NCBI GenBank assembly: GCA_964423475.1
Contig: CAYRFD010000001.1
Location: 1-60,038 of the forward strand
Reading direction: 5' to 3'
Length of the DNA: 60,038 nt
DNA from: an uncultured Candidatus Saccharibacteria bacterium
GTDB taxonomy: Bacteria; Patescibacteriota; Saccharimonadia; Saccharimonadales; CAIOMD01
The notes below the pieces were generated by a model. The model was not told the DNA's origin, made no database searches, and was given only the letters and a program-made list of their open reading frames with translations. Both the position numbers and the translations under genes were made by a program. Shown here in pieces: positions 4,116 through 52,639 of the stretch (within the stretch, counting starts at the first letter, position 1; each line of letters starts with the position of its first letter).

Positions 4116-4174
4116 ATATTTACTTTAACAAAAATATGTACATTGCAGTATAATAATACATAAGCATTACAACT

Positions 4175-22303: not shown

Positions 22304-23124
22304 TGTATTCTGGATCAACCCTAACAAATCGTTCTGGGAACCTAGTTGGTGCCCATCAAAAAATTGATCGTGCTGCACGTTATTCGTTGGCAGATATGTT
22401 AAAAAATGATCATAGCTTTCCGGCAAAACATCAAATATTACATTTTGAGGGTAAAAATGGCCCCGATAGTGCTAAGGCTAAGCTAGACGGCATACATGCC
22501 CCATGGCATTTTTATGATCCTTTTGACCCAGATGACGGTATTTTATTAGAGCAAATCAATAATCATTACAATACATTAGTAAAAGAACTTAAGAACAAAC
22601 ACACAGAAAGAAGCGCCTTTGAGGCAAGCTGGTTGGCTCATGCTATTGTAGATGGCCTAACCCCCGCTCATCATTATCCATTTGAACAAGAGCTAGAAAG
22701 ATTACGCGGAGAAGGCAAAGAAACTCGCACCACAGTGGCAAAAAAAGTAATTGTTCCTGCAGAAACAAAAATAGAACTTGTTCATAAAAATTGGGATGTT
22801 TGGGGGGCAAAAGGCTTACTAACAACTCATTTTTTGTTTGAAATGGGTGCAGCCATGCTAATTGCGCCAATGAGTAAACAATTTGCACGCCCAAGCAGAT
22901 ACGACATTAAAGCAATTTTACACCTAGGTTTAGATGAATACTTTAAACGTACTGCCAGAGAAATTGCAATGTTAGATATGTACGAAAACTTTTATAAAAA
23001 GGGATGGACACGTAAACTTTCTACGCAGGTTAGGCAAGAGCTTGCACCAAGAATGGGCAAAACTGTAACTCTTGCATGGTATTTAGCAGCAAAAGACGCC
23101 GGTTTATCCAGCCCAGAGGTTTAG
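22303..23124 (+). CDS. Hypothetical protein, possible zinc-dependent phospholipase C / S1-P1 nuclease-like fold
   Basis: 273 aa with no signal peptide or TM. The motif spacing resembles the Zn-PLC superfamily: GAHQKIDRAA ... NGPD ... HFYDP ... LAHAIVDGLTPAHH. The start overlaps the recG stop (TAATG). Confidence 0.55.
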   Translation: MYSGSTLTNRSGNLVGAHQKIDRAARYSLADMLKNDHSFPAKHQILHFEGKNGPDSAKAKLDGIHAPWHFYDPFDPDDGILLEQINNHYNTLVKELKNKHTERSAFEASWLAHAIVDGLTPAHHYPFEQELERLRGEGKETRTTVAKKVIVPAETKIELVHKNWDVWGAKGLLTTHFLFEMGAAMLIAPMSKQFARPSRYDIKAILHLGLDEYFKRTAREIAMLDMYENFYKKGWTRKLSTQVRQELAPRMGKTVTLAWYLAAKDAGLSSPEV

Positions 23125-23738: not shown

Positions 23739-24254
23739 TTAAAGTTGGAGAGCTTTATCAGAAATTGATTCTTCAGAAAAATCGTTGTTATCGTTAAGTT
23801 CGCTCATTTGTTGGCCAATATATGAATTAATATCGTTAATTGATGCACTGCTTGCTGGGGCAGTCGCACTAGTATCCACTTGTTTATTAGCCTGTTCTTC
23901 TAAGCTAGCTTGTTTTTTACTTGCAGAACTACTTATAGCAACGACTGTAATTATGCTAAATATTAGTAAAATAGACATAATAATAATAGTTAGCCCACTT
24001 TTTGTTTTAATAAAAGCTTTTTTTGGCGGAGCAACTGGTGTTGCGGAAATAGGTGTTTGGTAAACGCTTGCTGGTGTTGGTACGCTAGGCGCAGCTGTAG
24101 GGTTGGTTTGTTTTTGCGGGCTAAATACTGTTTGGGGCTGCACAGGGGTTTGCAAGGGCGCTTGCATAGGCGATTTTGGTATAAACGGCCTAGTGGGCGT
24201 ATTTTGTGGGTTTTGCGGTGTTTCTGGTGGTTGGTATGGGTTATTTGGATTCAA
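23739..24254 (-). CDS. Pro/Gln-rich single-pass membrane protein (hypothetical)
   Basis: 171 aa. It uses a TTG start preceded by an AAGGAA SD 9 nt upstream. The first ~80 aa are low-complexity P/Q/T-rich, followed by a TM (LTIIIMSILLIFSIITVVAI). It lies directly downstream of the 24270-24872 gene and is probably co-transcribed. Confidence 0.6.
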   Translation of the reverse strand: MNPNNPYQPPETPQNPQNTPTRPFIPKSPMQAPLQTPVQPQTVFSPQKQTNPTAAPSVPTPASVYQTPISATPVAPPKKAFIKTKSGLTIIIMSILLIFSIITVVAISSSASKKQASLEEQANKQVDTSATAPASSASINDINSYIGQQMSELNDNNDFSEESISDKALQL

Positions 24255-24269
24255 CTTAATATTTCCTTG

Positions 24270-24872
24270 CTATTGTTGCAGCTCTTTAGAAAAAGTTTCT
24301 AGCTGAGGTTTTATTTTATCTGTCACTACTGCGTTAATACTCTTAGACTGAGTGCTGAGCATGTTATTGTAAGATCTTGCAGTTACTATCATAGCCATAA
24401 AACCAACAGGGTCTGCCTCGCAGTTCATTAAAGAAGCATCTTCTATTGCTTGTTTGTACTGTGCAATAGTTGCTTCAAATTGTGTAACTTGTTTGGCAAA
24501 ATCATCTCTGCCTTGTTGTAGTGCAAAAGTATCTTTAGTGGCAATCTTTAGTTTACCAATTGAAATAAGCGTAGCCCCATCAACGTTTCTGTATGTGTTA
24601 TATCGGTTATCAGATAATTTAGTAATGTCTTTTATTACAGTGCCAAGCCTAACTTGTGCAGCTTTGCATTGTTTTTGCACACGTTTAGTTTGGGTTTCAT
24701 CTAAAACAACTTGTTGTTCTTGTTTGCGCTGAGCTACGCGTTGCTCTAGCGTGCTCCCAGGAGCCGGTGGGCTTGGGTCTGCAGCCAAAACAATAGTAGG
24801 TGCAAACATTAGTAACACAAAAAACGCTAGTGCTAAATATCTATATTTACTGTTTATAAAATAATTAATCAT
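24270..24872 (-). CDS. Secreted hypothetical protein (signal peptide, helical)
   Basis: 200 aa with a signal peptide ending in VLA/AD. The mature part has heptad-like charged/Q-rich sequence. I do not recognise a family. Confidence 0.65.
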   Translation of the reverse strand: MINYFINSKYRYLALAFFVLLMFAPTIVLAADPSPPAPGSTLEQRVAQRKQEQQVVLDETQTKRVQKQCKAAQVRLGTVIKDITKLSDNRYNTYRNVDGATLISIGKLKIATKDTFALQQGRDDFAKQVTQFEATIAQYKQAIEDASLMNCEADPVGFMAMIVTARSYNNMLSTQSKSINAVVTDKIKPQLETFSKELQQ

Positions 24873-26449: not shown

Positions 26450-27283
26450 TTAAGAAGATTTTTTTGGTTTAGAAACTTTTTTAGTAGTTTGTGCAGGGCT
26501 TTTAGTAATAGTGCCACCTACTTGTTTGCTAGAAGCTGAATCAACAGCTATATGGTTAACATAAATATAGGCTGGTAAACAGACATAGGCTACCATTAGT
26601 ATTAATGATGCTATCCAACCAATAAATGGTACAATATTTGCTGCTTGTATACCAAAATTTACTACCACTATTGCAAGCACCCATTGCCAATTTTGTTTAG
26701 AAACTTCGTAGCTAGATTTTAAGGTATCTGTTATTGAAAGATCTTTAGTCATTAGTATGTAAGGTGCTAAAAGAGTAAAAAACCAAACTGCAATAGCCCA
26801 CACAATTGCTAAGGGTAAAAGTATAAACCCAATTAGTACTATCATTAATAGCATCGATACAATAAAGGGCAAAACCACAGCTAACCCAATAAGTAAGCCA
26901 ATAACAACGTATCTTACAATATAGTGTTTGCTTAGTTCAAAAGCTTCTGAAATGCTAATTTTTTGTTTTCTAACACTAGCTAGTTGGGTGGCTACTAGGG
27001 CGGGTGTTACCAATAACCATATAACTGTTAAAACTATACTTAAAACAAAAGTAAAAATAGATGCAAAAACACTAATTGTTCCGTTGTTGTCATTTACAGA
27101 TGCCATAAATGGTAATAAAAACACAGGAATGGCAACAATTGTTGCAAGTATAGGAACGGCAATTATCCCCAAAAAAGTTAAAATATTAAATTTTAATGCT
27201 TCCCATGATTCGTCTATCTTAGAAAAGGCATAGCCCATCTTTTCAAAGACATCCATTTGATTTGCTGATTTTGTTTGCGACAT
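26450..27283 (-). CDS. Polytopic membrane protein (about 6 TM), hypothetical
   Basis: 277 aa with repeated hydrophobic helices and a basic C-terminal tail (KKVSKPKKSS). An AAGGAG SD lies upstream. A candidate promoter has -35 TTGACG, a 17-nt spacer and -10 TTTAAT on the minus strand at about 27300-27330. Confidence 0.7.
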   Translation of the reverse strand: MSQTKSANQMDVFEKMGYAFSKIDESWEALKFNILTFLGIIAVPILATIVAIPVFLLPFMASVNDNNGTISVFASIFTFVLSIVLTVIWLLVTPALVATQLASVRKQKISISEAFELSKHYIVRYVVIGLLIGLAVVLPFIVSMLLMIVLIGFILLPLAIVWAIAVWFFTLLAPYILMTKDLSITDTLKSSYEVSKQNWQWVLAIVVVNFGIQAANIVPFIGWIASLILMVAYVCLPAYIYVNHIAVDSASSKQVGGTITKSPAQTTKKVSKPKKSS

Positions 27284-30009: not shown

Positions 30010-30051
30010 TTAGCACTCAAAGTTGACGAGTGCTAATATTATAGCTATAAT
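30010..30051 (+). promoter_or_regulatory. Perfect CIRCE (HrcA operator) overlapping the clpP promoter
   Basis: TTAGCACTC-N9-GAGTGCTAA lies at 30010-30036. The -35 TTGACG (30023-30028) spans the N9/right arm, followed by a 17-nt spacer and the -10 TATAAT (30046-30051). The ATG at 30059 is 7 nt downstream. Confidence 0.85.
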
Positions 30052-30058
30052 TAAACTA

Positions 30059-30637
30059 ATGAAAAATTATATGATACCCACAGTTATAGAAAATGATGGC
30101 CGAATTGAGCGAGCCTACGATATATATAGCAGATTACTAAAAGACAGGATAGTTTTTTTAGGAGAAGATGTTAACCCCCATACGGCTAATATAATTGTTG
30201 CTCAAATGCTATTTTTAGAGGCAGAAGACCCTAAAAAAGATATTCTTTTGTATATAAATAGCCCAGGTGGCAGTGTTTATGATGGATTTGCCATTTACGA
30301 CACAATGCAATACGTAAAGTGCGATGTTCAAACCTACGGTATTGGTCTGCAAGCTAGCATGGGGGCATTTTTGCTTTCTAGTGGTGCAAAAGGCAAACGC
30401 TATGCATTGCCTCACAGTAAAGTTATGATTCATCAACCATCTTCTGGCACCCGTGGCAAAGTAACAGATATGGAAATTGATCTGCAAGAATCTTTACGAG
30501 TTAAAAAACAGTTAAACGAAATTTTAGCAAAAAACACTGGTCAAAAGCTTGCTAAAGTTACTGCAGATGCAGAACGAGATTATTGGATGAGTGCTCAAGA
30601 AGCAAAATCTTATGGCCTAATAGACAAAGTTTTATAA
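30059..30637 (+). CDS. clpP: ATP-dependent Clp protease proteolytic subunit ClpP
   Basis: The N-terminus [11 protein letters not shown]...[18 protein letters not shown] is typical ClpP, and the catalytic Ser/His context is present ([16 protein letters not shown]). The ORF-track TTG at 30023 lies inside the promoter/CIRCE, so ATG 30059 (or 30071) is used. Confidence 0.95.
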
Positions 30638-42986: not shown

Positions 42987-43304
42987 ATGGCTGATACACA
43001 GCAGCAAAGAATTCGTATTAGGTTAAAAGCCTACGATCATAAACTAATAGATCAATCTGCAAAACAAATTGTAGAAACTGCACTACGTACTGGAGCAACA
43101 ATTGCCGGGCCTATTCCTTTGCCAACCAGAAAAACAGTTTACACTGTAATTAAAAGCCCTCATGTATACAAAAAGGGTCGTGAACAGTTTGAAATGCGCG
43201 TACATAAGCGCCTAATTGACATTACAAACCCAACTCCTAAAACAATAGATAGCCTTATGAACTTATCACTACCTGCCGGCTGCGATGCCGAAATAAAAAT
43301 GTAA
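42987..43304 (+). CDS. rpsJ: 30S ribosomal protein S10 (NusE)
   Basis: 105 aa reading [26 protein letters not shown]...GPIPLPT...[23 protein letters not shown], with an AAGGAG SD. Confidence 0.97.
43227..43304 (+). repeat. Direct repeat copy 1 (functional 3' end of rpsJ)
   Basis: This 78 nt is repeated at 43987-44064 with 70/78 identity. Confidence 0.9.
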
Positions 43305-43328
43305 TATACTTTAGTTTATTACAATTTG

Positions 43329-43886
43329 TTATGCCGCCAAATCAAAGTCAGACTTTGTTTGGGGTAAATGTTCTTGCGTTCTACCAATCATATCTAATAA
43401 TACCGTAAAATCATGCATAGACTCGTTGCTATTGGTGTCAAAACCTAATGTTACAGCAATGAATTCCAAATTTACAATTAATCGTTTAATCTGTACTTTA
43501 TCATTATAATCTAATGAGTCTATAAGCTGCAGAGCATTGCTTATTAGAGCGCGAATTTCTTCTGCGCCTATTGTTTCTTTATTCGAAAGGTTGGTGGTCT
43601 CTACAGGGCTGTTAATTTGATAATCTAACTCACCCTCATGCCAATACCTCCAAAGCGTAAGATGAAACTCAGCTCTAGAATCTGGGTTGCCAACATCGTA
43701 ACCAAGCTTAGTTGCTATACTATACAAGCTCGATTTAAGCGATTGATACAAATTTTGATTGGGCACGTCATGATTAGGCCAGCTGTTTATTGTTTTTACA
43801 ATAACTACGGCCTCATCAAACAACGCACAAACTTGTAGCTCGTATAAGTTTACTTCATCGGATTGTGGAATACTCATTTCGCTCAT
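43329..43886 (-). CDS. Orphan acidic cytoplasmic protein (185 aa) with an internal two-fold repeat; function unknown
   Basis: A GGGGGA SD lies 7 nt upstream of the ATG, and the gene has its own promoter. There is no TM or signal peptide. Two related ~60-80 aa modules share L..IA..LG[YF]D-x4-[DE]S-x2-[ED]F (LYSIATKLGYDVGNPDSRAEF versus LEFIAVTLGFDTNSNESMHDF). I do not recognise a family. Confidence 0.7.
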   Translation of the reverse strand: MSEMSIPQSDEVNLYELQVCALFDEAVVIVKTINSWPNHDVPNQNLYQSLKSSLYSIATKLGYDVGNPDSRAEFHLTLWRYWHEGELDYQINSPVETTNLSNKETIGAEEIRALISNALQLIDSLDYNDKVQIKRLIVNLEFIAVTLGFDTNSNESMHDFTVLLDMIGRTQEHLPQTKSDFDLAA

Positions 43887-43912
43887 ACATTTATCCCCCT
43901 GTACTATACATA

Positions 43913-43941
43913 ACTATACAACAAAAACATATAATAAGCAA
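43913..43941 (-). promoter_or_regulatory. Near-consensus sigma70-type promoter of the 185-aa orphan gene
   Basis: On the minus strand, -35 TTGCTT (43941-43936) is followed by an exact 17-nt spacer and -10 TATAGT (43918-43913). The ATG lies about 27 nt downstream. Confidence 0.65.
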
Positions 43942-43986
43942 CTTATTTCTGTAACGTAATCTATTTAGTGCATTTACAATATCAAT

Positions 43987-44064
43987 AACCAAACTCCCAA
44001 AACTATAGATAGCCTTATGAACTTATCATTACCAGCTGGCTGCGATGCCGAAATCAAGATGTAA
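43987..44064 (+). pseudogene. Displaced duplicate of the rpsJ 3' end (last 25 codons plus stop)
   Basis: It would encode [25 protein letters not shown], compared with [25 protein letters not shown] in rpsJ. There is no upstream coding continuation: an in-frame TAG lies at 43966. Weak similarity may extend back to about 43972. Confidence 0.85.
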
Positions 44065-44082
44065 TTAGAGCTCATTTATATA

Positions 44083-44112
44083 AAAAACTACCATTTTTGT
44101 GGTAGTTTTTTA
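44083..44112 (+). terminator. Rho-independent terminator immediately after the displaced rpsJ 3' fragment
   Basis: An 11-bp stem AAAAACTACCA / TGGTAGTTTTT with loop TTTTTG is followed by a T-run. Confidence 0.85.
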
Positions 44113-44127
44113 TATATTGACATATTA

Positions 44128-44136
44128 TGGTATAAT
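44128..44136 (+). promoter_or_regulatory. Extended -10 promoter (TGgTATAAT) 7 nt upstream of ATG 44144
   Basis: TGGTATAAT lies at 44128-44136 and the ATG at 44144, with no SD. Confidence 0.5.
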
Positions 44137-44143
44137 CATAAGC

Positions 44144-44323
44144 ATGAAAGCTAAAAAATCAAAATCAAAAAAAGTTAATATATTTAAACCAACTTTAAAT
44201 AGGGTATACGGCCTTTGCATAGCAGTGTTACTAGTAACTGTAATTGTTCAGGGTTACTATCTTTCTGTTGTTTACGATAAGCAAAAAGAAGATTCTTCTT
44301 ACGCTAAATATATTTCTAATTAG
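44144..44323 (+). CDS. Small basic single-pass membrane protein (59 aa), hypothetical
   Basis: The product is MKAKKSKSKKVNIFKPTLNRVYGLCIAVLLVTVIVQGYYLSVVY... The ORF-track GTG start at 44099 lies inside the terminator hairpin, so it is rejected. Confidence 0.5.
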   Translation: MKAKKSKSKKVNIFKPTLNRVYGLCIAVLLVTVIVQGYYLSVVYDKQKEDSSYAKYISN

Positions 44324-44354
44324 CTAAGGTTAACCAGATTATGCGTTAATACTA

Positions 44355-44363
44355 TGGTAAAAT
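44355..44363 (+). promoter_or_regulatory. Extended -10 promoter (TGgTAAAAT) upstream of the DMT transporter gene
   Basis: TGGTAAAAT lies at 44355-44363, with a ~40 nt leader carrying a GGGAG SD. Confidence 0.4.
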
Positions 44364-44409
44364 AGTATTAATATTGGTGGTCTTTTGGGTTAGGGAGATG
44401 AAAAATTAA

Positions 44410-45360
44410 ATGAAATATGCAAAGTTTGGTTCTTTAGCGGTTGTAATTGCTGCTTTATTATGGAGTTTAGACGGCTTATTAAGAAGAAATTTATACGATT
44501 TACCACCATCGGTTGTAGTTTTTTATGAACATATCTTTGGTTTAATTATTTTATTGCCATTTATATTATTTACGTTAAAATCTTTTAAAAAACTAACAAA
44601 AAAACAATGGCTAGCCATTATTGGGGTATCGTTCTTGTCAGGGGCCTTAGGCACAATACTGTATACAGCTGCCTTAGGCCAAATTCAGTATATTCCGTTT
44701 TCTGTGGTAGTTCTACTTCAGCAATTAAATCCAATATTTGCAATAATTGCTGCAGCCATTTTATTGAAAGAACCATTAACAAAAAAGTTTTTTGGATTAA
44801 CCGCTATTGCTTTGGTTGCTGCGTATTTTGTAACTTTTCCAGACTATGTTGCAAACTTTAGTACAGGTTCTGGAACCGTACTAGCAGCACTATTTGCAGT
44901 TGGAGCTGCCGCAGCCTGGGGAACATCAACTGCATTTTCTAAATATGCGTTAAAAAACACTTCTTCTGTTCACATTACCGCGGCAAGGTTTGCTTTTACT
45001 CCTATTTTTGCATTTATGTTTATTTTAGCATCGGGTAGTATTGGCCAAGTTACACAGGTGTCTGCTGGGCAGTTTAAATATATTGTTGCAATTACATTTT
45101 CTACAGGGTTGTTAGCTTTGTTAATATATTATTTTGGCTTAAAACGAGTACCAGCCTCTAGGTCTGCCATTTTGGAACTAGCTTGGCCATTATCTGCAGT
45201 TATAGTTGGTTATTTATTTCTTAACCAAACCTTACAATTGTCACAAGCTATTGCTGCTATTGTTTTAACTACAAGTATTATATTTATAGCAAAAGACGCT
45301 CAAAAAGCAGCGGCTTCTGGGGTTAAAGAACCTTCTTTAGTTAATAAACAAAAAAAATAG
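44410..45360 (+). CDS. DMT-superfamily (EamA-like) transporter
   Basis: 316 aa with about 10 TM helices in two EamA-like halves. Confidence 0.85.
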   Translation: MKYAKFGSLAVVIAALLWSLDGLLRRNLYDLPPSVVVFYEHIFGLIILLPFILFTLKSFKKLTKKQWLAIIGVSFLSGALGTILYTAALGQIQYIPFSVVVLLQQLNPIFAIIAAAILLKEPLTKKFFGLTAIALVAAYFVTFPDYVANFSTGSGTVLAALFAVGAAAAWGTSTAFSKYALKNTSSVHITAARFAFTPIFAFMFILASGSIGQVTQVSAGQFKYIVAITFSTGLLALLIYYFGLKRVPASRSAILELAWPLSAVIVGYLFLNQTLQLSQAIAAIVLTTSIIFIAKDAQKAAASGVKEPSLVNKQKK

Positions 45361-45426
45361 CAAGATTTACATATTTATTGATTTTTGCAACTAAGAGTAC
45401 AATATAAGTATATTGGAGGATATACT

Positions 45427-46566
45427 ATGCTATTAAGTAAAATATCAAAGATACTTTTAGTTGTTTTTTTGGCTACTTTTGCGATAAGCGGGACTTCTAT
45501 AGCTCAAGAAATAACAAATTCACAAGTACAGCCCCTATATATTAATAAGACTCAGTATTATTCTGGTAATAATTATGAAATAAATGATGTAATTAATGGT
45601 GATGTATATTGTGTTGGTAATAATATTACTATAAATGGTAATGTTAATGGTGATGTTCTTTGCGCAGGCTCTACAATAATTATTAATGGCACAGTTAACG
45701 GCAATGTTAGATTATTTGCAAGTACCATACAAATACAAGGTTTGGTTACAAAAAATGGCACACTGGTTAGCCAAGACGCAACCATAGAAAAATCGGGTAA
45801 TATTGTAGGAGATGTAACAACAGCAACAAGCCTTACAAGGCTAAATGGTATAGTTGGCAGAGACGCAAATGTAAATACCAATAATTTTGAAGTCTCGGGT
45901 ATTATTGGTAGAGATTTAAATTTAAATACAGAAAGCGTTATTTATACTGATTCTGCTAAAGTTGCAGGTATAACTACGGTTAATTCTAACGTTTATGATA
46001 ATATTTCTATATTTCAAAACCTTACAAAGCTAAATTCTAATTTAGATATATTAGGGTTAATAAATATGTTATCGTCCGCCTTTATGTTTGTTGTTGGCCT
46101 TATATACGTCGCATTTATTATTGGTTTATTATTATCGGCCTTATCTATTGCTTTATTGTTTCCAAGGTCATTAAAAGATAGTTATGTATTTGCAAAAGAT
46201 CAACCTGCAACAGTATTGCTATCTGGCTTTTTGGTGTTGTGGGTAGCGCCATTAATTATATTCTTGTTAGTCTGGAGCATTATTGGTATACCAATAGCAA
46301 TAATTATTTGGGGGTTATATATAGCTTTGTTAACGTTAAGCATTCCGTTTAGTGCACATGCGCTTGGGTCTAAGTTATTCCCAAGCAGGAGCCATGCAAC
46401 CAAAGCTCTTGGTGGGGCGGCCTTACTATTGTTATTATTTGCAATACCCGTATTAAATATTATTGTATTTATTATTGTTATGGTATTTGGGGCAGGACTA
46501 ATTACCAGGGTTACCGTGCTGCGCTATACCCAGGCAAGACAAGTTTATATTAAAGATAAGCAATAA
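45427..46566 (+). CDS. Signal-peptide-bearing beta-helix (bactofilin/polymer-forming-like repeat) domain fused to a polytopic membrane domain
   Basis: A GGAGGA SD lies 7 nt upstream of ATG 45427, so the ORF-track TTG at 45385 is rejected. The signal peptide reads MLLSKISKILLVVFLATFAISGTSIAQE. Repeats such as NGDVYCVGNNITINGNVNGDVLCAGSTIIINGTVNGNVRL follow, then about 5 C-terminal TM helices. Confidence 0.7.
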   Translation: MLLSKISKILLVVFLATFAISGTSIAQEITNSQVQPLYINKTQYYSGNNYEINDVINGDVYCVGNNITINGNVNGDVLCAGSTIIINGTVNGNVRLFASTIQIQGLVTKNGTLVSQDATIEKSGNIVGDVTTATSLTRLNGIVGRDANVNTNNFEVSGIIGRDLNLNTESVIYTDSAKVAGITTVNSNVYDNISIFQNLTKLNSNLDILGLINMLSSAFMFVVGLIYVAFIIGLLLSALSIALLFPRSLKDSYVFAKDQPATVLLSGFLVLWVAPLIIFLLVWSIIGIPIAIIIWGLYIALLTLSIPFSAHALGSKLFPSRSHATKALGGAALLLLLFAIPVLNIIVFIIVMVFGAGLITRVTVLRYTQARQVYIKDKQ

Positions 46567-46575
46567 ATTTTTTAG

Positions 46576-46584
46576 TGCTATAAT
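46576..46584 (+). promoter_or_regulatory. Extended -10 promoter (TGcTATAAT) 8 nt upstream of ATG 46593
   Basis: TGCTATAAT lies at 46576-46584 and the ATG at 46593, with no SD. Confidence 0.5.
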
Positions 46585-46592
46585 TATAATTA

Positions 46593-46871
46593 ATGGCAAC
46601 AAAAAAACACGTAAAAAATAATTCTAAAAAATCAAATAGAGTAGAGCCAGACGGTGTATATCTTTTAAAGCTTGTTCTATATTTTATATTAGGTTGTTTA
46701 TGGATTAGGGTTGGTGACGTTGTTGTGTTGCCTTTTGGGCTATTAATTGGTATTTTATTTGCTTCTCATGATAATTTTCAGATAGATAGAAAAATAGAAT
46801 TTGCAGTGTTGTTTATTGCAGCTGTGCTGAGCTTTATTTCTCCTATTGGTTTTGTTATGACAATTGGTTAA
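46593..46871 (+). CDS. Small membrane protein (92 aa, about 3 TM), hypothetical
   Basis: It has a basic N-terminus followed by hydrophobic helices. I do not recognise a family. Confidence 0.6.
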   Translation: MATKKHVKNNSKKSNRVEPDGVYLLKLVLYFILGCLWIRVGDVVVLPFGLLIGILFASHDNFQIDRKIEFAVLFIAAVLSFISPIGFVMTIG

Positions 46872-46962
46872 TAGTGCTTGATTTTTTGTATAATTGCTTC
46901 ATAATAAAAGAAAACCTTGATTAATAAAAAACGAAATTTGATAATAAGTTAAAGGGGAGACA

Positions 46963-48555
46963 ATGGCAACAAAATATATTTTTGTTACAGGTGGGGTGTT
47001 AAGTGGTGTAGGTAAAGGAGTAACGGCAGCTAGTTTAGGGGCAGTTTTAAAAAGCCGTGGCTTTAAAGTAAATATTCAAAAATGTGATCCTTATTTTAAC
47101 GTAGATTCAGGAACTCTTAACCCAGCCGAACACGGAGAAGTCTTTGTTACTAAAGATGGAGCAGAAACTGATTTAGATTTAGGCCATTATGAAAGATTTT
47201 TAAGTAGCAATTTAACTCAGCAAAGCTCTACAATGAGCGGGCGCATATACAGACAAGTTATAGAAGACGAAAGATCGGGTAAATATCTTGGTAAAACTGT
47301 TCAAATTATTCCTCACGTAACAGACGCCATGCAAGAGGCTATAATTAGCAGCTCTAAGGGTTTTGATATCCATATAGTTGAAGTTGGTGGCACTGTAGGC
47401 GATTACGAAAGTACTGCATTTATAGAAGCAATTAGGCAATTAAGACTTAAAGTTGGCCCCAAGAATTGCTTGTATATTCATGTAGTGTTTTTACCATTTT
47501 TAGAGGCTAGCCAAGAAGTTAAAAGTAAACCAGCCCAAAACGCTGTAAGAGATTTAAGAGAAGCTGGAATAATATGCGATATTTTGGTTGCAAGAGCCGA
47601 TCATGCGGTGCCAAAAAATATTCTTAAAAAATTAAGCTTGTTTGGTGACATCCCGCTAGATCGTGTGTTGGCTTTGCCTACGGTAGATACTATATATGAA
47701 GTTCCTTTAATTATAGAAGAAACAGGAATTGGTGATATTGTTTGTAAAGAATTAAGTTTACCAAATAAAAAGAGTAAATTAAATGATTGGACAAAGCTTG
47801 TATCTATTATTAAAAAACCAAATAAAAAAGCATGTAAAGTAGCAATTGTTGCAAAATATCTTGATCACACAGACACGTATTCTAGTGTTGTAGAGGCACT
47901 TAAAAGCGCAGCGTGGAGTTTTGATATGGATGTTTCTATAGTATGGGTAGATGCAGAAAAATTAACCAAAGATAACTGTCAAGACAAGTTTAATAAAATA
48001 GATGCTATAGTAGTGCCGGGCGGATTTGGTAATAGGGGTATAGAAGGCAAAATTTTGGCAGCTCAGTACGCTTTACAAAATAATATACCTTATTTGGGTT
48101 TATGTTTAGGAATGCAAGTTGCAAGTATAGGGGCCATAAGGATGGCTGGTATAAAAAATGCCAACTCAACAGAGTTTGATGTAAAATCTAAAGATCCAGT
48201 TATAGATATTATGGAATCACAAAAAAAGCAAAAAAAACTTGGCGGAACAATGCGTTTAGGAGATTATAAATGCGATATTGTAAAAGGGTCTTTAGCCCAC
48301 AAAATGTATAAAAGTGAGCATATTGTAGAGCGTCACAGGCATAGATATGAATTTAACCCTAAATATACAAAACAACTTAATAAAGGAGGCTTAGTTATTT
48401 CTGGTACCAACCCAGAAACAGGTTTAACAGAAATTGTAGAAGCTCCAAAACATTCGTATTTTATTGCCACACAGTTTCACCCAGAATTTACAAGCCGCCC
48501 CCTAAAACCTCACCCGCTATTTGCTGGTTTAATAGGTGCAACTCAAAAACAATAA
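46963..48555 (+). CDS. pyrG: CTP synthase
   Basis: 530 aa with the N-terminal synthetase motifs FVTGGVLSGVGKG and GGTVGDYES, and a GATase domain with GLCLGMQ (Cys nucleophile) and HRHRYEFN. Confidence 0.97.
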   Translation: MATKYIFVTGGVLSGVGKGVTAASLGAVLKSRGFKVNIQKCDPYFNVDSGTLNPAEHGEVFVTKDGAETDLDLGHYERFLSSNLTQQSSTMSGRIYRQVIEDERSGKYLGKTVQIIPHVTDAMQEAIISSSKGFDIHIVEVGGTVGDYESTAFIEAIRQLRLKVGPKNCLYIHVVFLPFLEASQEVKSKPAQNAVRDLREAGIICDILVARADHAVPKNILKKLSLFGDIPLDRVLALPTVDTIYEVPLIIEETGIGDIVCKELSLPNKKSKLNDWTKLVSIIKKPNKKACKVAIVAKYLDHTDTYSSVVEALKSAAWSFDMDVSIVWVDAEKLTKDNCQDKFNKIDAIVVPGGFGNRGIEGKILAAQYALQNNIPYLGLCLGMQVASIGAIRMAGIKNANSTEFDVKSKDPVIDIMESQKKQKKLGGTMRLGDYKCDIVKGSLAHKMYKSEHIVERHRHRYEFNPKYTKQLNKGGLVISGTNPETGLTEIVEAPKHSYFIATQFHPEFTSRPLKPHPLFAGLIGATQKQ

Positions 48556-48561
48556 ATAATT

Positions 48562-49758
48562 ATGGTTGTTAAGAAAAAATTAAATAAAAAAGTATTTATT
48601 TTAATAGCTATTGTTATAATTGCTATAATTTTATTGCTATTTATAATATTAAAGCCAACAAGTAAAAATGTAAGCAATATTGAATCTCAAGGCCAAATAC
48701 AAGATAGTACGGCTAAAAACACCACAAGAATTATTGCGGTTGGCGATCAGTTGCCGCACGACGCAATAAATAAACAAGCGCTTAAACCTGATGGCTCTTA
48801 TGACTATCTGCAGTTTTACAAAGAGATTAAAAATAATTTTAATAATGTACAAGGTGCTTATTGTAATCAAGAAGTCCCAGCCGCAGGATCGGTTGCCCCA
48901 ATAAGTGGTTACCCAGTATTTAACGCTCCTGAGCAGTTTGCTAAAGATTTGAGTGCCCTTGGCTGCAATTTAATTAATTTGGCTAATAACCATATGTTTG
49001 ATAAAGGCCAAGCAGGTATAAATGCAACAAGAGCTGTTTGGGATACTTTGCCAAAAAAAGCTATAGCAGGTGCTAACAGAAACCAAGAAGAGCAAAATAG
49101 CATTCAATATTTTACAGAAAACAATATTAAATTTGCATATTTAGCATTTGCAGAATACTCAAATATTCCAACTAGTACAAATTACGCTATTAATATTTAT
49201 AGCGAGGCAGTTGCAAAGCCATTAGTAACACAAGCCGCAAATAATGCAGATGTTGTTATTGTAAGCATGCACTGGGGAACAGAGTATAGCCCTACAGAAA
49301 ACGATTTTCAAAAAACTGCCGCTAAAGTGTTAGCAGAAAGTGGTGCAGACGTAATAATTGGAGCAGGGCCACACGTGCTGCAACCTGTAGATAAAATAGT
49401 TTCAGAGGGTGGTCGTGAAACTTTAGTTTGGTATAGTTTGGGCAATTTTTTAAGTGCACAGCTAGACCTAGCATCTTTAATTGGTGGCATTGCAGTTATG
49501 GATTTTACAAAATCAGAAAATGGAGCAAAGATAGACTCAATAGGTTTTATACCATCTTATATGCATTACGAATGGACGCCAGAGCAAAAAGCAGCCGATG
49601 CCCTTTTAGAAAGAAAAAACTTTATGGTTTACCCGCTAGAAAAATCCGCAGAGCCGTTGTCTCGTTCGTTATTTAATACAAGCGTAGAAGCTCAAACAGA
49701 GTATGTTAAAAACGTAGTAAACACCCATATAAACATGCCACTCTTACCAACCCAATAA
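48562..49758 (+). CDS. CapA-family (PGA_cap, metallophosphatase-like) membrane-anchored protein
   Basis: 398 aa with an N-terminal TM and CapA-like motifs: IIAVGDQLPHD, NLANNHMFDKG, VSMHWGTEYS, GAGPHVLQPV, YSLGNFLS. Confidence 0.85.
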   Translation: MVVKKKLNKKVFILIAIVIIAIILLLFIILKPTSKNVSNIESQGQIQDSTAKNTTRIIAVGDQLPHDAINKQALKPDGSYDYLQFYKEIKNNFNNVQGAYCNQEVPAAGSVAPISGYPVFNAPEQFAKDLSALGCNLINLANNHMFDKGQAGINATRAVWDTLPKKAIAGANRNQEEQNSIQYFTENNIKFAYLAFAEYSNIPTSTNYAINIYSEAVAKPLVTQAANNADVVIVSMHWGTEYSPTENDFQKTAAKVLAESGADVIIGAGPHVLQPVDKIVSEGGRETLVWYSLGNFLSAQLDLASLIGGIAVMDFTKSENGAKIDSIGFIPSYMHYEWTPEQKAADALLERKNFMVYPLEKSAEPLSRSLFNTSVEAQTEYVKNVVNTHINMPLLPTQ

Positions 49759-50523
49759 TCATAGATTAAAATATTCTTCTAGGGTTGTATTTTGGGAATA
49801 TATTTTTTGGGCGATATCTTTGCCTACAAATCTAAAATGCCATGGTTCATACTGGTAACCTGTTATTTGGTCTTTATCTAAAGGGTATCTTAGTATAAAG
49901 CCATACTTATATGCGTTATCTTTAAGCCAAATGCCTTCTTTTGTGTCCGCAAAACAAGTTTCTAAGTAGCATTCTCTGTTTGTAGGAGCAATATCTAATG
50001 CTAAGCCCGTTTGATGTTCGCTTGTGCCCGGTTTTGCAGATATTTTATCTGCCTCTGCTTGGCCTAAGCTATGTACTAAGTTATTATAATAAAAACCCTG
50101 TAGTTCGGCAGATCTATAACCACTAGCTAGCATTAGATCTAAATTATTGTTTTTTGCATCTGCAAATAATGATTCAAGGTTGGGTGCAACAATATTTCTA
50201 ATACTATTTTCTGAATTGCTTTTTTGATTATTTATAGTAACTTTAGGACTAACCAAATCGCTTGGGACATAGCTAAGTAAAATTGGTCTGTTTTTATTAA
50301 CAATAATAAATTGACTTGCAGAATCGTTAATATCTATATTGTCTTGGGGTTGCTCGTTTAATGCTGTGTTACTACTTGGAGTGTTATATTGGCTAACATT
50401 TATATTTTGTTCTTTATTATTTAACTTTGTATAAGTAAAGAAAAAAATAATGGCCAGTACTAAACAAATAATAAACGCTATAATATATATTTTTTTAGAT
50501 TTAGTTTTTTTACTATGATTCAT
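49759..50523 (-). CDS. D-alanyl-D-alanine carboxypeptidase, M15B (VanY/LdcB-like)
   Basis: 254 aa with an N-terminal TM and zinc-peptidase motifs SGYRS, SEHQTGLALDI and EPWHFRF. Confidence 0.88.
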   Translation of the reverse strand: MNHSKKTKSKKIYIIAFIICLVLAIIFFFTYTKLNNKEQNINVSQYNTPSSNTALNEQPQDNIDINDSASQFIIVNKNRPILLSYVPSDLVSPKVTINNQKSNSENSIRNIVAPNLESLFADAKNNNLDLMLASGYRSAELQGFYYNNLVHSLGQAEADKISAKPGTSEHQTGLALDIAPTNRECYLETCFADTKEGIWLKDNAYKYGFILRYPLDKDQITGYQYEPWHFRFVGKDIAQKIYSQNTTLEEYFNL

Positions 50524-50545
50524 TAATTTATATATTAGCTGTTTA

Positions 50546-50554
50546 TGCTATAAA
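50546..50554 (+). promoter_or_regulatory. Extended -10 promoter (TGcTATAAA) 8 nt upstream of ATG 50563
   Basis: TGCTATAAA lies at 50546-50554 and the ATG at 50563, with no SD. Confidence 0.45.
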
Positions 50555-50562
50555 ATAATAGC

Positions 50563-51825
50563 ATGAGTCTAAATAATAAATATAATTATAGACATAAAAA
50601 AACTAATCTTAATTATAATTATAGTAAACCATTAAAGCGTGGCAAAAATTATAAGCGTTATATGGCCTTTAGTTTAATAATATTAAGTTTGCTAATAGTT
50701 GTATTTGCATTTGTAAAACCTTTGCCACATATTACGGCACAATCAAACTCTATAACAATACCTTCTATAGCGGGCAATCAAATGCCATGGCCAAGCACCG
50801 GAAATTCAGCAATAGGAGCACAATATTTTGGGCCATTATTAAGTAATAATGATGATTCTTCTGTACCCATTGCAAGCACTGCAAAAATATTTACAGCTTT
50901 GTTAGTTAATAACAAAAACCCAATTAAAGGAGATGGAGATAAGCTAGTAATAGATAACCATGATGTACAAATAATGCAAGAATATATATCTAAAAATGGC
51001 TCTATTTTGCCAGTAAACATTGGTCAAGCACTTACCCAAAAAGAAGCTATGCAAGCGTTATTAATTGTTTCTGCCAATAATATTGCCGATACACTGGCTA
51101 TAAAGACATTTGGGTCTGTAGATGCCTATGTGTCTTATGCAAATACTACGCTAAAAGAATGGGGTTTTGTAAATACAAATATAGCCGATGCAAGTGGGTA
51201 TTCCGCATTAACAAAAAGCACAGCGTCTGAACTGGTAAAAGCAGCCGATATGTTAATTTCTAACCCCGATTTGGCACAAATAGTTAATACTGCGCAAATA
51301 GAATCAGCCAATATAGGTATAATACAAAATACAAATAAAATTTTGGGCACAAATGGCGTAATAGGTATTAAAACCGGAAACACAGATGAAGCAGGTGGTT
51401 GTTTTGTGCTTGCACAAAAAATAACTTTAGCAGAAGGCCAAATAGTTACAATGTTGGTTGCTGTTTTAAATCAATATAATGTGCCTGATGCTATTGTTCA
51501 ATCGCTCAATTTATCTCAAGCAGCTTCCGCTGGGTTTGCTTATAAAACAATTATTTCTAAAGACCAAGTTGTTAACCAATATGTAACAAATTGGGGAGAA
51601 TCGTACGATGTTGAAACTAAAGACGATACCAAGGCAACCATTTGGCAATGGAAAGAAACAGTACTGCCCATACAAAGCAAGATATTATCTGCCAACCACT
51701 CTATAAATGAGCCCGTTGGCGTTATAGAAGTAAAATCTAACAATACGTCTAGCACAACACAATTAGTTCTAAATACTAAGATAGAAAAGCCATCTATAAT
51801 GTGGCGATTCACCAATATTATTTAG
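50563..51825 (+). CDS. Serine-type D-Ala-D-Ala carboxypeptidase (S11, PBP5/DacB-like)
   Basis: 420 aa with an N-terminal TM and the motifs SxxK (ASTAKIF), SxN (VSANN) and KTG (IKTGNT). Confidence 0.85.
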   Translation: MSLNNKYNYRHKKTNLNYNYSKPLKRGKNYKRYMAFSLIILSLLIVVFAFVKPLPHITAQSNSITIPSIAGNQMPWPSTGNSAIGAQYFGPLLSNNDDSSVPIASTAKIFTALLVNNKNPIKGDGDKLVIDNHDVQIMQEYISKNGSILPVNIGQALTQKEAMQALLIVSANNIADTLAIKTFGSVDAYVSYANTTLKEWGFVNTNIADASGYSALTKSTASELVKAADMLISNPDLAQIVNTAQIESANIGIIQNTNKILGTNGVIGIKTGNTDEAGGCFVLAQKITLAEGQIVTMLVAVLNQYNVPDAIVQSLNLSQAASAGFAYKTIISKDQVVNQYVTNWGESYDVETKDDTKATIWQWKETVLPIQSKILSANHSINEPVGVIEVKSNNTSSTTQLVLNTKIEKPSIMWRFTNII

Positions 51826-51862
51826 TAATAAATGACTATTATTATATATTCTAAATATATGC

Positions 51863-51891
51863 TTTACATATCTTATGCTATCTGATAATAT
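51863..51891 (+). promoter_or_regulatory. Candidate promoter of the rplC-led ribosomal protein operon
   Basis: -35 TTTACA (51863-51868) is followed by a 17-nt spacer and -10 TAATAT (51886-51891). The leader is about 130 nt and ends in an AAGGAGA SD. Confidence 0.4.
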
Positions 51892-52027
51892 AGTACGGTA
51901 TATTAAACAGCTCCTTGGTGAAATGGCAAGTTGCCTAAAAAATTGGGCAAAACTACCTTTAACCAAGAATTTTTATGCCGTATAAATTAGCGTTTATTGG
52001 TTTGAGCACTAAAATGTAAGGAGAACT

Positions 52028-52639
52028 ATGAAAGCACTCATTACGAGGAAGGTAGGAATGACGAGTATCATTACAGATGCTGGCGTTGTTACACCTATAA
52101 CCTTGCTTTCCGCTAGTCCCTGTGTTGTTACACAGGTCAAAACTGCAGAGTCAGATGGCTACAGCGCAGTACAGCTTGGATTTGAATCATCCAAAAAAGT
52201 TGGTAAAGCCCAAGCGGGGCATTTTAAAAAATCTGATTCTAGCCCAAAAATTGTTCGCGAATTTCGTGTTTCTGAAATTTCCGAAGATTTAACAGTTGGT
52301 GCAAAATTATCGGCAGACACTTTTTCTGTTGGTGATGTAGTAAACGTAACTGGAGTTAGCAAGGGTAAAGGGTTTGCCGGAACAATAAAAAGACATAATT
52401 TTAAAAGAGGACGCAAAACTCATGGTGGCCAAAGCTATCGTAGGCCTGGATCAATTGGATCTATGTATCCTCAAAAGATTTTTAAAGGTAAAAAAATGGC
52501 AGGTCAAATGGGTAATGAGCAAGTTACCGTGCAAAATTTGCACATTGCATTAGTTGATACAGAAAATTCTGTTATTGGTGTTGTAGGTGCCGTTCCTGGT
52601 CCTCGCAAGGGTATTGTTGTTGTAAAGGGAGCAAAATAA
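52028..52639 (+). CDS. rplC: 50S ribosomal protein L3
   Basis: RKVGMTSI...GVSKGKGFAGTIKRHNF..GGQSYRRPGSIG. Confidence 0.97.
   Translation: MKALITRKVGMTSIITDAGVVTPITLLSASPCVVTQVKTAESDGYSAVQLGFESSKKVGKAQAGHFKKSDSSPKIVREFRVSEISEDLTVGAKLSADTFSVGDVVNVTGVSKGKGFAGTIKRHNFKRGRKTHGGQSYRRPGSIGSMYPQKIFKGKKMAGQMGNEQVTVQNLHIALVDTENSVIGVVGAVPGPRKGIVVVKGAK

Follow-up and report, generated by a model that had tools for sequence, protein, structure and literature searches.

Insertion-duplication (Campbell-type) and homology-facilitated illegitimate recombination are known in transformable bacteria such as Streptococcus and Acinetobacter, and genomic islets, or hotspots, are loci where homologous recombination in the core genes on either side swaps alternative accessory genes. 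We know of no element that targets rpsJ, the gene for ribosomal protein S10, and a literature search found none. ICEs, IMEs and prophages integrate site-specifically at the 3' ends of tRNA and tmRNA genes and of protein-coding genes, including rplL, rpsI and rpmG in streptococci, where ICEs are bounded by direct repeats of 12-54 bp (PMC4701971). Saccharibacteria have natural competence and use homologous recombination to integrate linear DNA (PMC10633639).

Here, we describe a 60,038-nt stretch of a Saccharibacteria genome, hereafter the window, in which the end of rpsJ occurs twice, on either side of a cassette with a single gene. In a Saccharimonadales (TM7) species, the resulting 760-bp unit, made up of one 78-nt rpsJ end and 682 nt of other DNA, is best explained as a genomic islet that varies between strains at the 3' flank of rpsJ, and not as a self-mobile element. 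As with ICEs, IMEs and prophages at gene 3' ends, the target gene is reconstituted with synonymous change only, the native end appears displaced to the far side of the insert, and the empty site of relatives is a reciprocal hybrid of the two ends. Unlike these elements, the rpsJ cassette contains no integrase, excisionase or transfer genes in its 682 bp, its repeat is 78 nt long and imperfect, its cargo is tied to one locus and one clade, the putative attP half and the cargo do not vary together, and the breakpoints do not fall at one position. Campbell-type events are mainly laboratory or rare occurrences, whereas the rpsJ case is a widespread natural haplotype, for which a circular or one-ended intermediate would have to be supposed. 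What the two share is a short homology duplicated on either side of the insert; in addition, Campbell-type integration needs no dedicated recombinase, and the phylum of the host is naturally competent (PMC10633639). Like a genomic islet, the cassette occupies the same locus in all strains, with diverged alleles and an empty state, mosaic flanks, breakpoints in a core gene and no mobility genes, in an rpsJ-rplC interval that is variable across the whole order. It differs from the typical islet in holding one orphan gene in allelic classes, not different gene sets, and in the duplicated core-gene end that marks the founding event.

Structure of the rpsJ locus

The features of the locus, in window coordinates, are as follows.

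42987-43304, plus strand: rpsJ, intact, encoding ribosomal protein S10 of 105 aa (Pfam Ribosomal_S10, E = 7.5e-37)
43227-43304, plus strand: copy 1 of the repeat, the functional last 25 codons and stop codon of rpsJ
43245-43268, plus strand: 24-nt core in copy 1, shared by both copies, within which the empty allele switches type
43301-43324, no strand assigned: weak AT-rich hairpin TGTAATA...TATTACA, overlapping the rpsJ stop codon and lying between the convergent genes
43329-43886, minus strand: cassette gene, 185 aa, the sole ORF in the intervening 682 nt; product acidic and predicted to be all-helical
43887-43986, minus strand: upstream region of the cassette gene, promoter-like as read from the sequence
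43899-43894, minus strand: SD-like GGGGGA, likewise read from the sequence
43918-43913, minus strand: -10-like TATAGT, likewise
43941-43936, minus strand: -35-like TTGCTT, likewise
43987-44064, plus strand: copy 2 of the repeat, a non-coding and apparently displaced rpsJ 3' end
44077-44116, no strand assigned: strong two-way hairpin with a T-run, following copy 2
44144-44323, plus strand: predicted small membrane protein of 59 aa; in the empty allele, its gene is the next one after rpsJ

The two copies are identical at 70 of 78 bases, and the direct repeat can be extended by 1 nt (43227-43305 versus 43987-44065, 71/79 identical), with a start-to-start spacing of 760 nt. Mismatches lie at repeat positions 5, 12, 18, 43, 48, 51, 69 and 72, leaving positions 19-42 as an identical core (43245-43268 and 44005-44028), which has 2 matches in the whole window, even with 3 mismatches allowed, and 0 in shuffles. 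Read in the frame of rpsJ, the copies differ by 7 synonymous changes and one Pro>Gln replacement, which lies in copy 2; random single-base changes in these codons would be synonymous in only 22-25% of cases, and the probability of at least 7 of 8 is 1.5e-4 to 4e-4 (about 2e-4).

Upstream of copy 2, no significant similarity to rpsJ was found, the alignment being no better than shuffles, and the left edge of the repeat is therefore sharp; on the same score, a decayed pseudogene covering more of rpsJ was rejected at this position. An in-frame TAG at 43966-43968 leaves copy 2 without an upstream coding continuation, and no tandem structure was detected at the repeat. The last 60 nt of copy 2, together with what follows them, are identical to the empty allele described below, where this stretch forms the end of rpsJ and its downstream flank. 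Because the synonymous bias is significant, the comparison supports the view that copy 2 once functioned as an rpsJ 3' end and was displaced, as opposed to having decayed after duplication in situ. Changes in copy 2 are unevenly placed, 8 of 9 falling in the first 33 nt and 1 of 9 in the last 45 nt (P about 0.006), and this stronger conservation of the 3' two-thirds than of the 5' third may require recurrent recombination with empty alleles, or constraint. No rpsJ 3' duplicate was found in other Saccharimonadales among 79 species loci.

The cassette gene and its flanking signals

The protein encoded by the cassette gene has no family in Pfam, PHROGs, PADLOC or NCBIfam and is represented by no more than 5 clusters among 5.8e9 proteins. 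When 1.84e9 representatives were searched with a profile, the sole addition was a distant fragment of 66 aa (P0006), located on a 770-nt contig whose context is uninformative. The AlphaFold2 model (pLDDT 65) has six helices; a Foldseek search against the PDB returned nothing usable (best E = 0.29, TM about 0.2), and a sequence-profile search of the PDB likewise gave no usable match. The protein is acidic and is predicted to be cytoplasmic and helical. Its C-terminal tail, ...SDFDLAA, is conserved and may make it a substrate of ClpXP. An internal repeat, considered because of two similar LG(F/Y)D motifs, was rejected (BLASTP of the halves, E = 3.2). The dN/dS between alleles is 0.3-0.5, indicating that the cassette ORF is a real gene. 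It was found only in one small Saccharimonadales clade, in several related lineages, and in every one of them it lies directly 3' of rpsJ and convergent to it; for the common variant, 24 of 24 contigs read share one chromosomal context. Neither a cassette homologue nor the repeat was found in viral contigs, GenBank phages or PLSDB plasmids.

Within the promoter-like upstream region, the AATTATACAACAAAAACATATAATAAGCAA block is the best-conserved non-coding stretch across all alleles. A consensus promoter scanner did not list the TTGCTT/TATAGT promoter and listed a weaker site at 43985-43958, and similarity between 43887-43986 and rpsJ is not significant. The weak hairpin between the convergent genes (-6.9 kcal/mol, z = -2.05 on the plus strand) is kept in all cassette haplotypes: as judged by eye, its counterpart in L011 is a perfect 10-bp stem, and that in L014 reads TGTAACA/TGTTACA, with both sides changed and the pairing kept. 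The hairpin after copy 2 is far stronger on both strands (-22.2 kcal/mol, z = -6.7 on the plus strand; -19.6 kcal/mol, z = -7.3 on the minus strand) and in the empty allele is the rpsJ terminator, 12 nt past the stop codon. A pattern scanner did not list it because its stem has too few G-C pairs. In L105, it shows a compensatory pair change (CCACCA/TGGTGG versus CTACCA/TGGTAG in the window). The 59-aa gene, from its place in the empty allele, marks the right-hand conserved flank, and a comparable ORF, of 67 aa, follows the rpsJ terminator of L015, the closest outgroup species.

A previous sequence-only reading of this DNA had described the 70/78 repeat with seven synonymous changes and one replacement, the in-frame TAG at 43966, a strong terminator after copy 2 and a single minus-strand gene in the intervening 682 nt, all of which hold up here. 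Its argument that both copies had once been functional, as opposed to one decaying in situ, is borne out by the significance of the synonymous bias.

Occupied and empty alleles in related strains

The occupied layout recurs, identical base for base, in more than 20 independent metagenome contigs from several projects and assemblers. In the window's own lineage, all 23 of the 23 contigs read with an identical downstream gene were occupied and no empty allele was seen; the occupied arrangement appears to be fixed there. Loci exactly 760 nt shorter were found in L007 (GCA_018062265.1) and L008 (SRR28148177), two independent assemblies of one related strain that is roughly 97% identical to the window, and these empty alleles carry their own SNP pattern. 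Their rpsJ end combines copy-1 bases at positions 5, 12 and 18 with copy-2 bases at positions 43-72, and the switch from copy-1 type to copy-2 type falls within the 24-nt core. This composition supports reading the end as the reciprocal hybrid that an empty site should show. Because a deletion between the repeats would also produce it, the empty allele may be either an ancestral empty site or the product of such a deletion. The same 105-aa S10 protein is encoded in L001-L010, including the empty L007 and L008. In L015, rpsJ is followed by a terminator and then by a small membrane ORF, and this empty layout in the outgroup makes the cassette the derived state.

On the window background, the predicted empty junction has C/T/A at positions 5/12/18 and T/A/T/C/G at positions 43/48/51/69/72, followed by TTAGAGCTC. 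The predicted circle junction runs from 43960-43986 through the 5' part of copy 2, the core and the 3' part of copy 1 to 43305 onward, and would read TTTACAATATCAAT-AACCAAACTCCCAAAACT-ATAGATAGCCTTATGAACTTATCA-CTACCTGCCGGCTGCGATGCCGAAATAAAAATGTAA-TATACTTTAG. A degenerate DNA pattern covered four junction types (copy 1, copy 2, empty and predicted circle). Scans of JGI metagenomes with the cassette profile and with the junction pattern gave no matches, but they also missed the known JGI contig L013, and their negative result therefore has no bearing on a circle form.

Allelic diversity and recombination breakpoints

The fast-evolving cassette gene occurs in at least four deeply diverged allele classes, with 50-69% amino acid identity and dS of 0.6-0.9, whereas in the flanks the divergence among the window, L013 and L007 is no more than a few percent. 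Such deep diversity among alleles, as is seen for immunity and conflict genes, suggests selection of a diversifying or balancing kind. Copy 1 of L013 matches that of the window at 78 of 78 positions and the L013 cassette allele is only 57% identical, the divergence beginning at the rpsJ stop codon and ending at the conserved promoter block; copy 2 of L013 has an in-frame stop and three further changes. L013 also harbors an IS30-like insertion, which looks quite different from the rpsJ cassette.

Without a coding role, copy 2 is eroding through point mutations and deletions, and is decayed, truncated or absent in 5 of the 6 occupied haplotype classes. It is reduced to positions 1-17 (17 nt) in L105-107 and is not recognisable in L002, L011/L012 and L014. 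The 17-nt stretch is the only convincing short remnant; candidates in L002 and L014 (ATACGAAACTC...) were too weak to call. Three different cassette alleles are found in the window, L013 and L105-107, yet all of these share one left junction of copy 2, which points to a single old origin of the duplication. Its age is also indicated by its being common to these three haplotypes while copy 2 erodes in them.

L105-107 are mosaic, with rpsJ like that of the empty strain (4/240 differences) and the cassette and 59-aa gene like those of L002 (3/179). In these mosaics, the breakpoint maps to the interval from repeat position 51 to 57, which the 24-nt core does not reach; between the window copies and the empty allele, the type switch falls within positions 19-42. 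Breakpoints in the rpsJ end therefore differ between haplotypes, which fits homologous recombination and not a fixed crossover site, although this variation rests on two cases, of which that in L105-107 could be an unrelated recombination. The rpsJ-rplC gap ranges from 134 to 3012 nt (median 1390) among 59 Saccharimonadales species, and this wide variation marks the rpsJ flank as a general variable spot.

Proposed origin and maintenance of the islet

We lean towards an old insertion-duplication at a recombination hotspot, which is now spread, swapped and lost via homologous recombination between the conserved flanks. One old event would have joined an rpsJ 3' end, the cassette gene and its promoter to a chromosome in which rpsJ was followed by the terminator. 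The incoming rpsJ end would complete the gene, S10 staying unchanged because all 5 differences in the incoming part are synonymous, and the resident end would be displaced 760 bp downstream, beside the old terminator, as copy 2. The topology would be that of a single crossover (Campbell type) within the 78-nt homology, which we ascribe to host homologous recombination and not to a dedicated integrase. In its sequence outcome, a Campbell-type founding crossover would look like an event joined by homology on one side and illegitimately on the other. No circular or junction molecule was seen, and natural transformation imports linear single strands, which would make true Campbell integration awkward; the uneven conservation of copy 2 also counts against this model.

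Strains differ, between conserved flanks, in whether they have the unit and in which of the diverged alleles of its gene they carry; all carriers hold the unit at the same position, with an empty state beside four allele classes and with mosaic flanks in L105-107 and L013. The occupied arrangement would spread between co-existing strains by double-crossover replacement, and the same process would swap the cassette gene for diverged alleles, with rpsJ as the left exchange arm and the promoter, copy 2, terminator and 59-aa gene as the right one. Natural transformation probably delivers the DNA. Precise loss of the unit could result from recombination between the copies or from replacement by an empty allele.

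A related possibility, which we regard as unlikely, is homology-facilitated illegitimate recombination, in which a linear donor carrying rpsJ, the cassette and its promoter came from a duplicate-free lineage like L011 or L014, joined by homology in or upstream of rpsJ on the left and illegitimately at codon 81 of the recipient rpsJ on the right, so that the recipient's last 78 nt and terminator remained as copy 2. Cassette lineages without a duplicate do exist, the left edge of copy 2 is sharp and homology stops there, the DNA just left of copy 2 is homologous to the cassette upstream region in L014 and L002, and natural competence is documented in the phylum. A donor-derived rpsJ would also fit the 14/240 differences between the window and the empty strain in this gene, against about 1.5% in tuf; this excess is weak evidence, as divergence is patchy along the whole region (8-9% in rpsG), and it was rejected as proof of whole-gene import. 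However, this scenario predicts that copy 2 is of recipient type throughout, yet its mismatches to the empty allele fall only at positions 5, 12 and 18, that is, 3 of 3 within the first 18 of 78 nt (P about 0.012). It also predicts a donor-type copy 1, yet there are 0 differences from the empty allele over 51 nt, compared with about 6% in the rest of rpsJ (P about 0.03). A chimeric assembly of two strain variants, or a decayed local tandem duplication, is effectively refuted. Strain mixtures are present in the samples, window-type and L105-type haplotypes co-occurring in ERZ27239146 and ERZ3455856, but the base-for-base agreement among contigs from different projects and assemblers, the SNP pattern of the empty alleles and a longest identical stretch (24 nt) that is probably shorter than the k-mer lengths of the assemblers, to judge by k127/k141 in contig names, argue against an artefact, and an in-situ duplicate is countered by the absence of tandem structure and by a synonymous bias that excludes neutral decay.

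Distinctly unlikely, in our view, is a mini integrative element whose attP mimics the rpsJ 3' end and which an integrase acting in trans, from the genome or a helper, inserts and excises, copy 1 being attL and copy 2 attR. Several observations are those expected of such an element: the direct repeats that flank the insert both end at the stop codon, the target gene is intact, with S10 100% identical between occupied and empty alleles, and the empty site of relatives is the hybrid of the left part of attL and the right part of attR, with its switch inside the identical core. In the supposed element-derived part that completes rpsJ, 5 of 5 changes are synonymous, and the non-coding element part holds the single replacement; integration of ICEs into the 3' ends of rplL, rpsI and rpmG provides precedents. 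However, no recombinase lies beside the att site, either in the 682-nt cargo or among 20 other window ORFs tested, and the cargo gene was never found away from rpsJ, nor in any phage, plasmid or viral contig. Copy 1 of L013 equals that of the window despite the 57%-identical cargo, which means that the putative attP half and the cargo do not move as one. The L105-107 breakpoint at positions 51-57, the loss or decay of attR in most occupied haplotype classes and the lack of an empty allele among the contigs read from the window's own lineage count against it as well. Less probable again is the bolder proposal that the unit is a minimal integrase-less cassette targeting the 3' end of rpsJ (S10/NusE) and moved in trans, its payload a hypervariable orphan under diversifying selection; if true, an epibiont with a reduced genome would have a system for exchanging cassettes at an essential ribosomal gene. 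An integron gene cassette was rejected in view of the cassette's own promoter-like block and SD and of the absence of intI among the ORFs tested nearby; a repeat analysis, which is not a formal attC model, found no attC-like imperfect palindrome at the cassette ends. An IS or MITE was likewise rejected, the ends being 78-nt direct repeats of coding sequence, with neither terminal inverted repeats nor a transposase.

The insertion-duplication with subsequent homologous exchange that we favor is close to a fallback of the sequence-only reading, namely a cassette captured by homologous recombination from a related strain. That reading's main claim was an insertion footprint left by a foreign element targeting rpsJ. 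The footprint stands, as a discrete 760-bp unit with a hybrid empty site, and the empty sites that it had proposed to look for in relatives exist, in L007 and L008; it had reported no integrase or transposase, and no recombinase was found in the cassette or among the 20 other window ORFs tested. A foreign, rpsJ-targeting element is not supported: the gene resides only at the rpsJ locus of several related lineages and not in phages, plasmids or viral contigs, L002, L011/L012 and L014 carry it without a recognisable second copy, and the breakpoints differ.

Biological implications

The rpsJ locus provides a worked example of accessory DNA entering and leaving a tiny, mobile-element-poor Patescibacteria genome of an uncultured lineage beside an essential and highly conserved gene, and occupied, empty, decayed and mosaic alleles can all be compared at this one site. 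For genome scans, it calls for caution, as an attL/attR-like duplicated gene end alone is no proof of an integrase-driven element. The rpsJ 3' flank is variable across Saccharimonadales, with rpsJ acting as a homology arm between strains and apparently between species. To our knowledge, only a minority of the phage, host-interaction and immunity genes of Saccharibacteria is known, and the orphan cassette gene, whose four allele classes co-exist in the same wastewater communities, is a candidate phage, host-interaction or immunity factor.

Duplicated rpsJ end and its haplotypes

The repeat search returned one direct repeat of 79 nt at the 3' end of rpsJ (43227-43305 and 43987-44065; 90% identity, spacing 760 nt), and the 682 nt between the copies hold a single ORF:

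43227-43304: copy 1, the functional 3' end of rpsJ
43329-43886, minus strand: cassette gene, 185 aa
43987-44064: copy 2, a non-coding rpsJ 3' end
44077-44116: terminator stem
44144-44323: gene for a 59-aa protein, right of the terminator

The copies differ at eight repeat positions, and an identical core of 24 nt (positions 19-42) separates the differences at 5, 12 and 18 from those at 43, 48, 51, 69 and 72; the core has no further match in the window at up to three mismatches, and shuffled sequence gave 0 matches. In the rpsJ frame, seven of the eight differences are synonymous, whereas a single-base change placed at random in the codons concerned would be synonymous in 22-25% of cases (P = 1.5e-4 to 4e-4 for the 7-of-8 split), and the eighth is a Pro>Gln replacement in copy 2 (position 5) that is absent from all functional rpsJ genes examined. 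Judging by this synonymous bias, copy 2 was once the end of a functional gene and has been displaced. It has a TAG in the rpsJ frame 21 nt upstream, no significant rpsJ similarity left of its edge in the alignment search, and on its 3' side a hairpin (-22 kcal/mol, z = -6.7) that folds on both strands. The region agrees with the description given in the sequence-only reading.

Haplotypes were collected by looking up the S10 protein as an exact match, together with the cassette variants and the 59-aa protein encoded downstream.

Haplotypes at the rpsJ 3' end. Bases are listed in the order of repeat positions 5, 12, 18 / 43, 48, 51, 69, 72; L-numbers are loci compared with the window.
H1 (window and >20 contigs from several wastewater and other projects): rpsJ end CTA/CTCAA; allele A1; copy 2 full, ACT/TATCG, then terminator
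H2 (L013): copy 1 as in H1 (78/78); allele B1, 57% amino acid identity to A1; copy 2 with 6 more changes, including an in-frame stop
H3 (L007 = GCA_018062265.1; L008 = SRR28148177): rpsJ end CTA/TATCG; no cassette, exactly 760 nt shorter; no copy 2, terminator directly 3' of rpsJ
H4 (L105-107): rpsJ end H3-like to position 51, L002-like from 57; allele A2; copy 2 reduced to positions 1-17, fused to terminator
H5 (L002): own variant of rpsJ end; allele A2', truncated; copy 2 unrecognisable, terminator degenerate
H6 (L011, L012): own variant of rpsJ end; allele B2; copy 2 unrecognisable, terminator degenerate
H7 (L014): own variant of rpsJ end; allele B2; copy 2 unrecognisable, terminator degenerate

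The 760-bp unit is discrete and is present or absent between strains. H1 and H3 are strains of one species, as they diverge by ~2.6% over 8 kb, and the empty allele is an exact reciprocal hybrid of copy 1 and copy 2; L002 diverges from the window by ~13%. The closest outgroup species (L015, S10 98% identical in amino acids) has the empty layout, with rpsJ followed by the terminator and a small membrane ORF. The left junction of copy 2 in H4 is that of H1, and because H1, H2 and H4 have this junction in common while carrying three different cassette alleles, the duplication is, on this comparison, old and of single origin. Copy 2 has since eroded: H2 has acquired point changes, and H4 has lost a segment, on a reading of the sequence by deletion between two AAAAC motifs. 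An assembly artefact was rejected: many assemblies have the layout in exactly the same bases, the two copies share no identical stretch longer than 24 nt, and the empty alleles have their own SNP pattern.

The H4 loci (reverse complement; ERZ27239146, ERZ3455856 and PRJEB27054) are mosaics, with an rpsJ near-identical to that of the empty strain (4/240 differences), a cassette and 59-aa gene near-identical to those of the 13%-diverged L002 lineage (3/179 differences), and a breakpoint inside the last 27 nt of rpsJ. In L105, the A-run ending the copy 2 remnant forms the left arm of the terminator stem, which reads CCACCA/TGGTGG (~1072-1100, reverse complement) versus CTACCA/TGGTAG in the window, a compensatory double change. 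In H2 (reverse complement, ~787-1886), a degenerate IS30-like insertion with HTH_38, the start of an rve domain and a broken reading frame separates the cassette promoter block from copy 2. At the last codons of rpsJ, two synonymous states specific to copy 1 (ATA AAA vs ATC AAG) give rise to the minus-strand run TTTTTATTT (43290-43304), directly after a small hairpin (43301-43324); speculatively, this run may be the U-tract of a terminator for the convergent cassette gene. The A at repeat position 72 also occurs in L011 and L014 and is absent in L105 and L002.

Genomic setting of rpsJ

Relatives of its S10 protein assign the organism to the Saccharimonadales (TM7, Patescibacteria). The window has the order rpoB-rpoC-rpsL-rpsG-fusA-tuf-rpsJ. 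Unrelated genes, among them pyrG and those for an EamA transporter and a bactofilin-like protein, fill the next ~8.7 kb, so that rplC starts only at 52028. Across 59 Saccharimonadales species the rpsJ-rplC gap ranges from 134 to 3012 nt (median 1390), a statistic to which ~20 further species do not contribute, as rplC lies beyond the retrieved flank or the contig ends first. This wide range makes the rpsJ 3' flank a variable spot order-wide. A break in the S10 operon behind rpsJ is thus routine among Saccharimonadales (43304-52028 in the window; loci L015-L094), often with a gene for a small 92-aa-like membrane protein just upstream of rplC. Among 79 Saccharimonadales species loci, neither the cassette gene nor a duplicate of the rpsJ end turned up. 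At locus L005, fusA (1975-4498) is called as 82-aa and 567-aa products versus a single 694-aa EF-G in the window and L007, which suggests a frameshift or assembly error in that sample.

Cassette gene

The cassette gene is evidently a real gene, since the frame is intact in five allele lineages and dN/dS is 0.3-0.5. On a reading of the sequence, GGGGGA upstream is SD-like, and a conserved block there resembles a promoter, one that the consensus scan did not list. The protein is acidic (28 D+E vs 12 K+R), with six helices predicted at moderate confidence (pLDDT 65), and family and structure searches found no family or fold match. For five more window ORFs of 171-318 aa (14221-15177, 22303-23124, 23739-24254, 24270-24872 and 26450-27283), Pfam gave no family at E <= 0.001. 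Because this genome has many orphan genes, a missing family alone does not make the cassette gene foreign.

The family comprises 5 clusters among 5.8e9 proteins, to which a profile search of 1.84e9 representatives added one 66-aa fragment. This ORF (L108, a 770-nt contig from ERZ23498656; 20-220) matches the profile at E = 6e-14, with its similarity in the N-terminal third of the cassette protein. Behind it lies a 120-aa ORF without a family (298-660), and no rpsJ is visible on the short contig; the cassette domain may thus also exist elsewhere as a shorter version. Between allele classes dS is 0.6-0.9, whereas the flanks differ by a few percent, and classes share samples (H1 and H4 in ERZ27239146 and ERZ3455856). 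This pattern suggests diversity long maintained or repeatedly imported, as in conflict or immunity genes. SDFDLAA is the C-terminus in three out of four full-length alleles (window, L013 and L011; 43329-43349 in the window). The ssrA degradation tag, which ClpXP recognises, has a similar LAA ending, and a clpP gene lies in the window (30023-30637); the tail might make the cassette protein short-lived.

Origin of the unit

What the loci display directly is the structure of the unit, its presence or absence, its allele diversity, its mosaic flanks and the erosion of copy 2. Host recombination at a hotspot is the most likely source of the footprint. One insertion-duplication would have put an rpsJ end, cassette and promoter into an empty-layout chromosome, the incoming rpsJ end completing the gene and the resident end and terminator being displaced. 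A single-crossover topology fits the reciprocal pattern better than a one-sided illegitimate join, because copy 1 looks native on its left and foreign on its right and copy 2 the reverse. A deletion between the copies would mimic this pattern, which thus does not fix the direction of change; we consider the one-sided join unlikely as a variant of the founding event. At present, host recombination would act through double crossovers in the conserved arms, replacing the whole interval or the cassette coding region alone, and the unit could be lost when its two flanking copies recombine with each other or when an empty allele is brought in.

In structure, the unit is nearest to integrase-driven elements at the 3' ends of conserved genes and shares three structural features with them; the targets of such elements include rplL, rpsI and rpmG, all ribosomal protein genes, and their direct repeats measure 12-54 bp (PMC4701971). 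They are defined by a recombinase, whereas none was found in the cassette cargo or among 20 other window ORFs tested, and on balance the unit is not assigned to them. All full-length members of the tiny cassette protein family lie at the rpsJ 3' locus, and no cassette protein was found in phage, plasmid or viral collections. H1 and H2 have exactly the same copy 1 but alleles of 57% identity, so the half of copy 1 that an attP would have supplied does not follow the cargo. The switch in H4 from H3-like to L002-like DNA falls at positions 51-57, outside the core in which the empty allele changes from copy 1 to copy 2 bases; breakpoints that vary within a conserved gene end, as these two may do, point to homologous recombination. 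Each of the 23 contigs read with the window's exact 59-aa protein is occupied, giving no sign of ongoing excision in this lineage. Saccharibacteria are naturally competent and integrate DNA via flanking homology (PMC10633639). The evidence argues against a self-mobile or trans-mobilised integrative element, and an integrase-driven founding event is quite improbable.

Comparison with known systems

The earlier interpretation is partly supported: the insertion footprint holds, with polymorphic empty sites now found, and the element specifically targeting rpsJ gives way to probable host recombination. The accompanying remark that no such element is known agrees with our literature search, which found none using rpsJ as a target; we know of none either, a lack that matters less if no element is involved. 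In behaviour, the unit is nearest to a core-gene-flanked recombination hotspot, or genomic islet, and shows the defining traits of one. It is, modestly put, a fresh example of an already known kind in an under-studied phylum, and its value comes mainly from the complete allele series and the hypervariable orphan gene.
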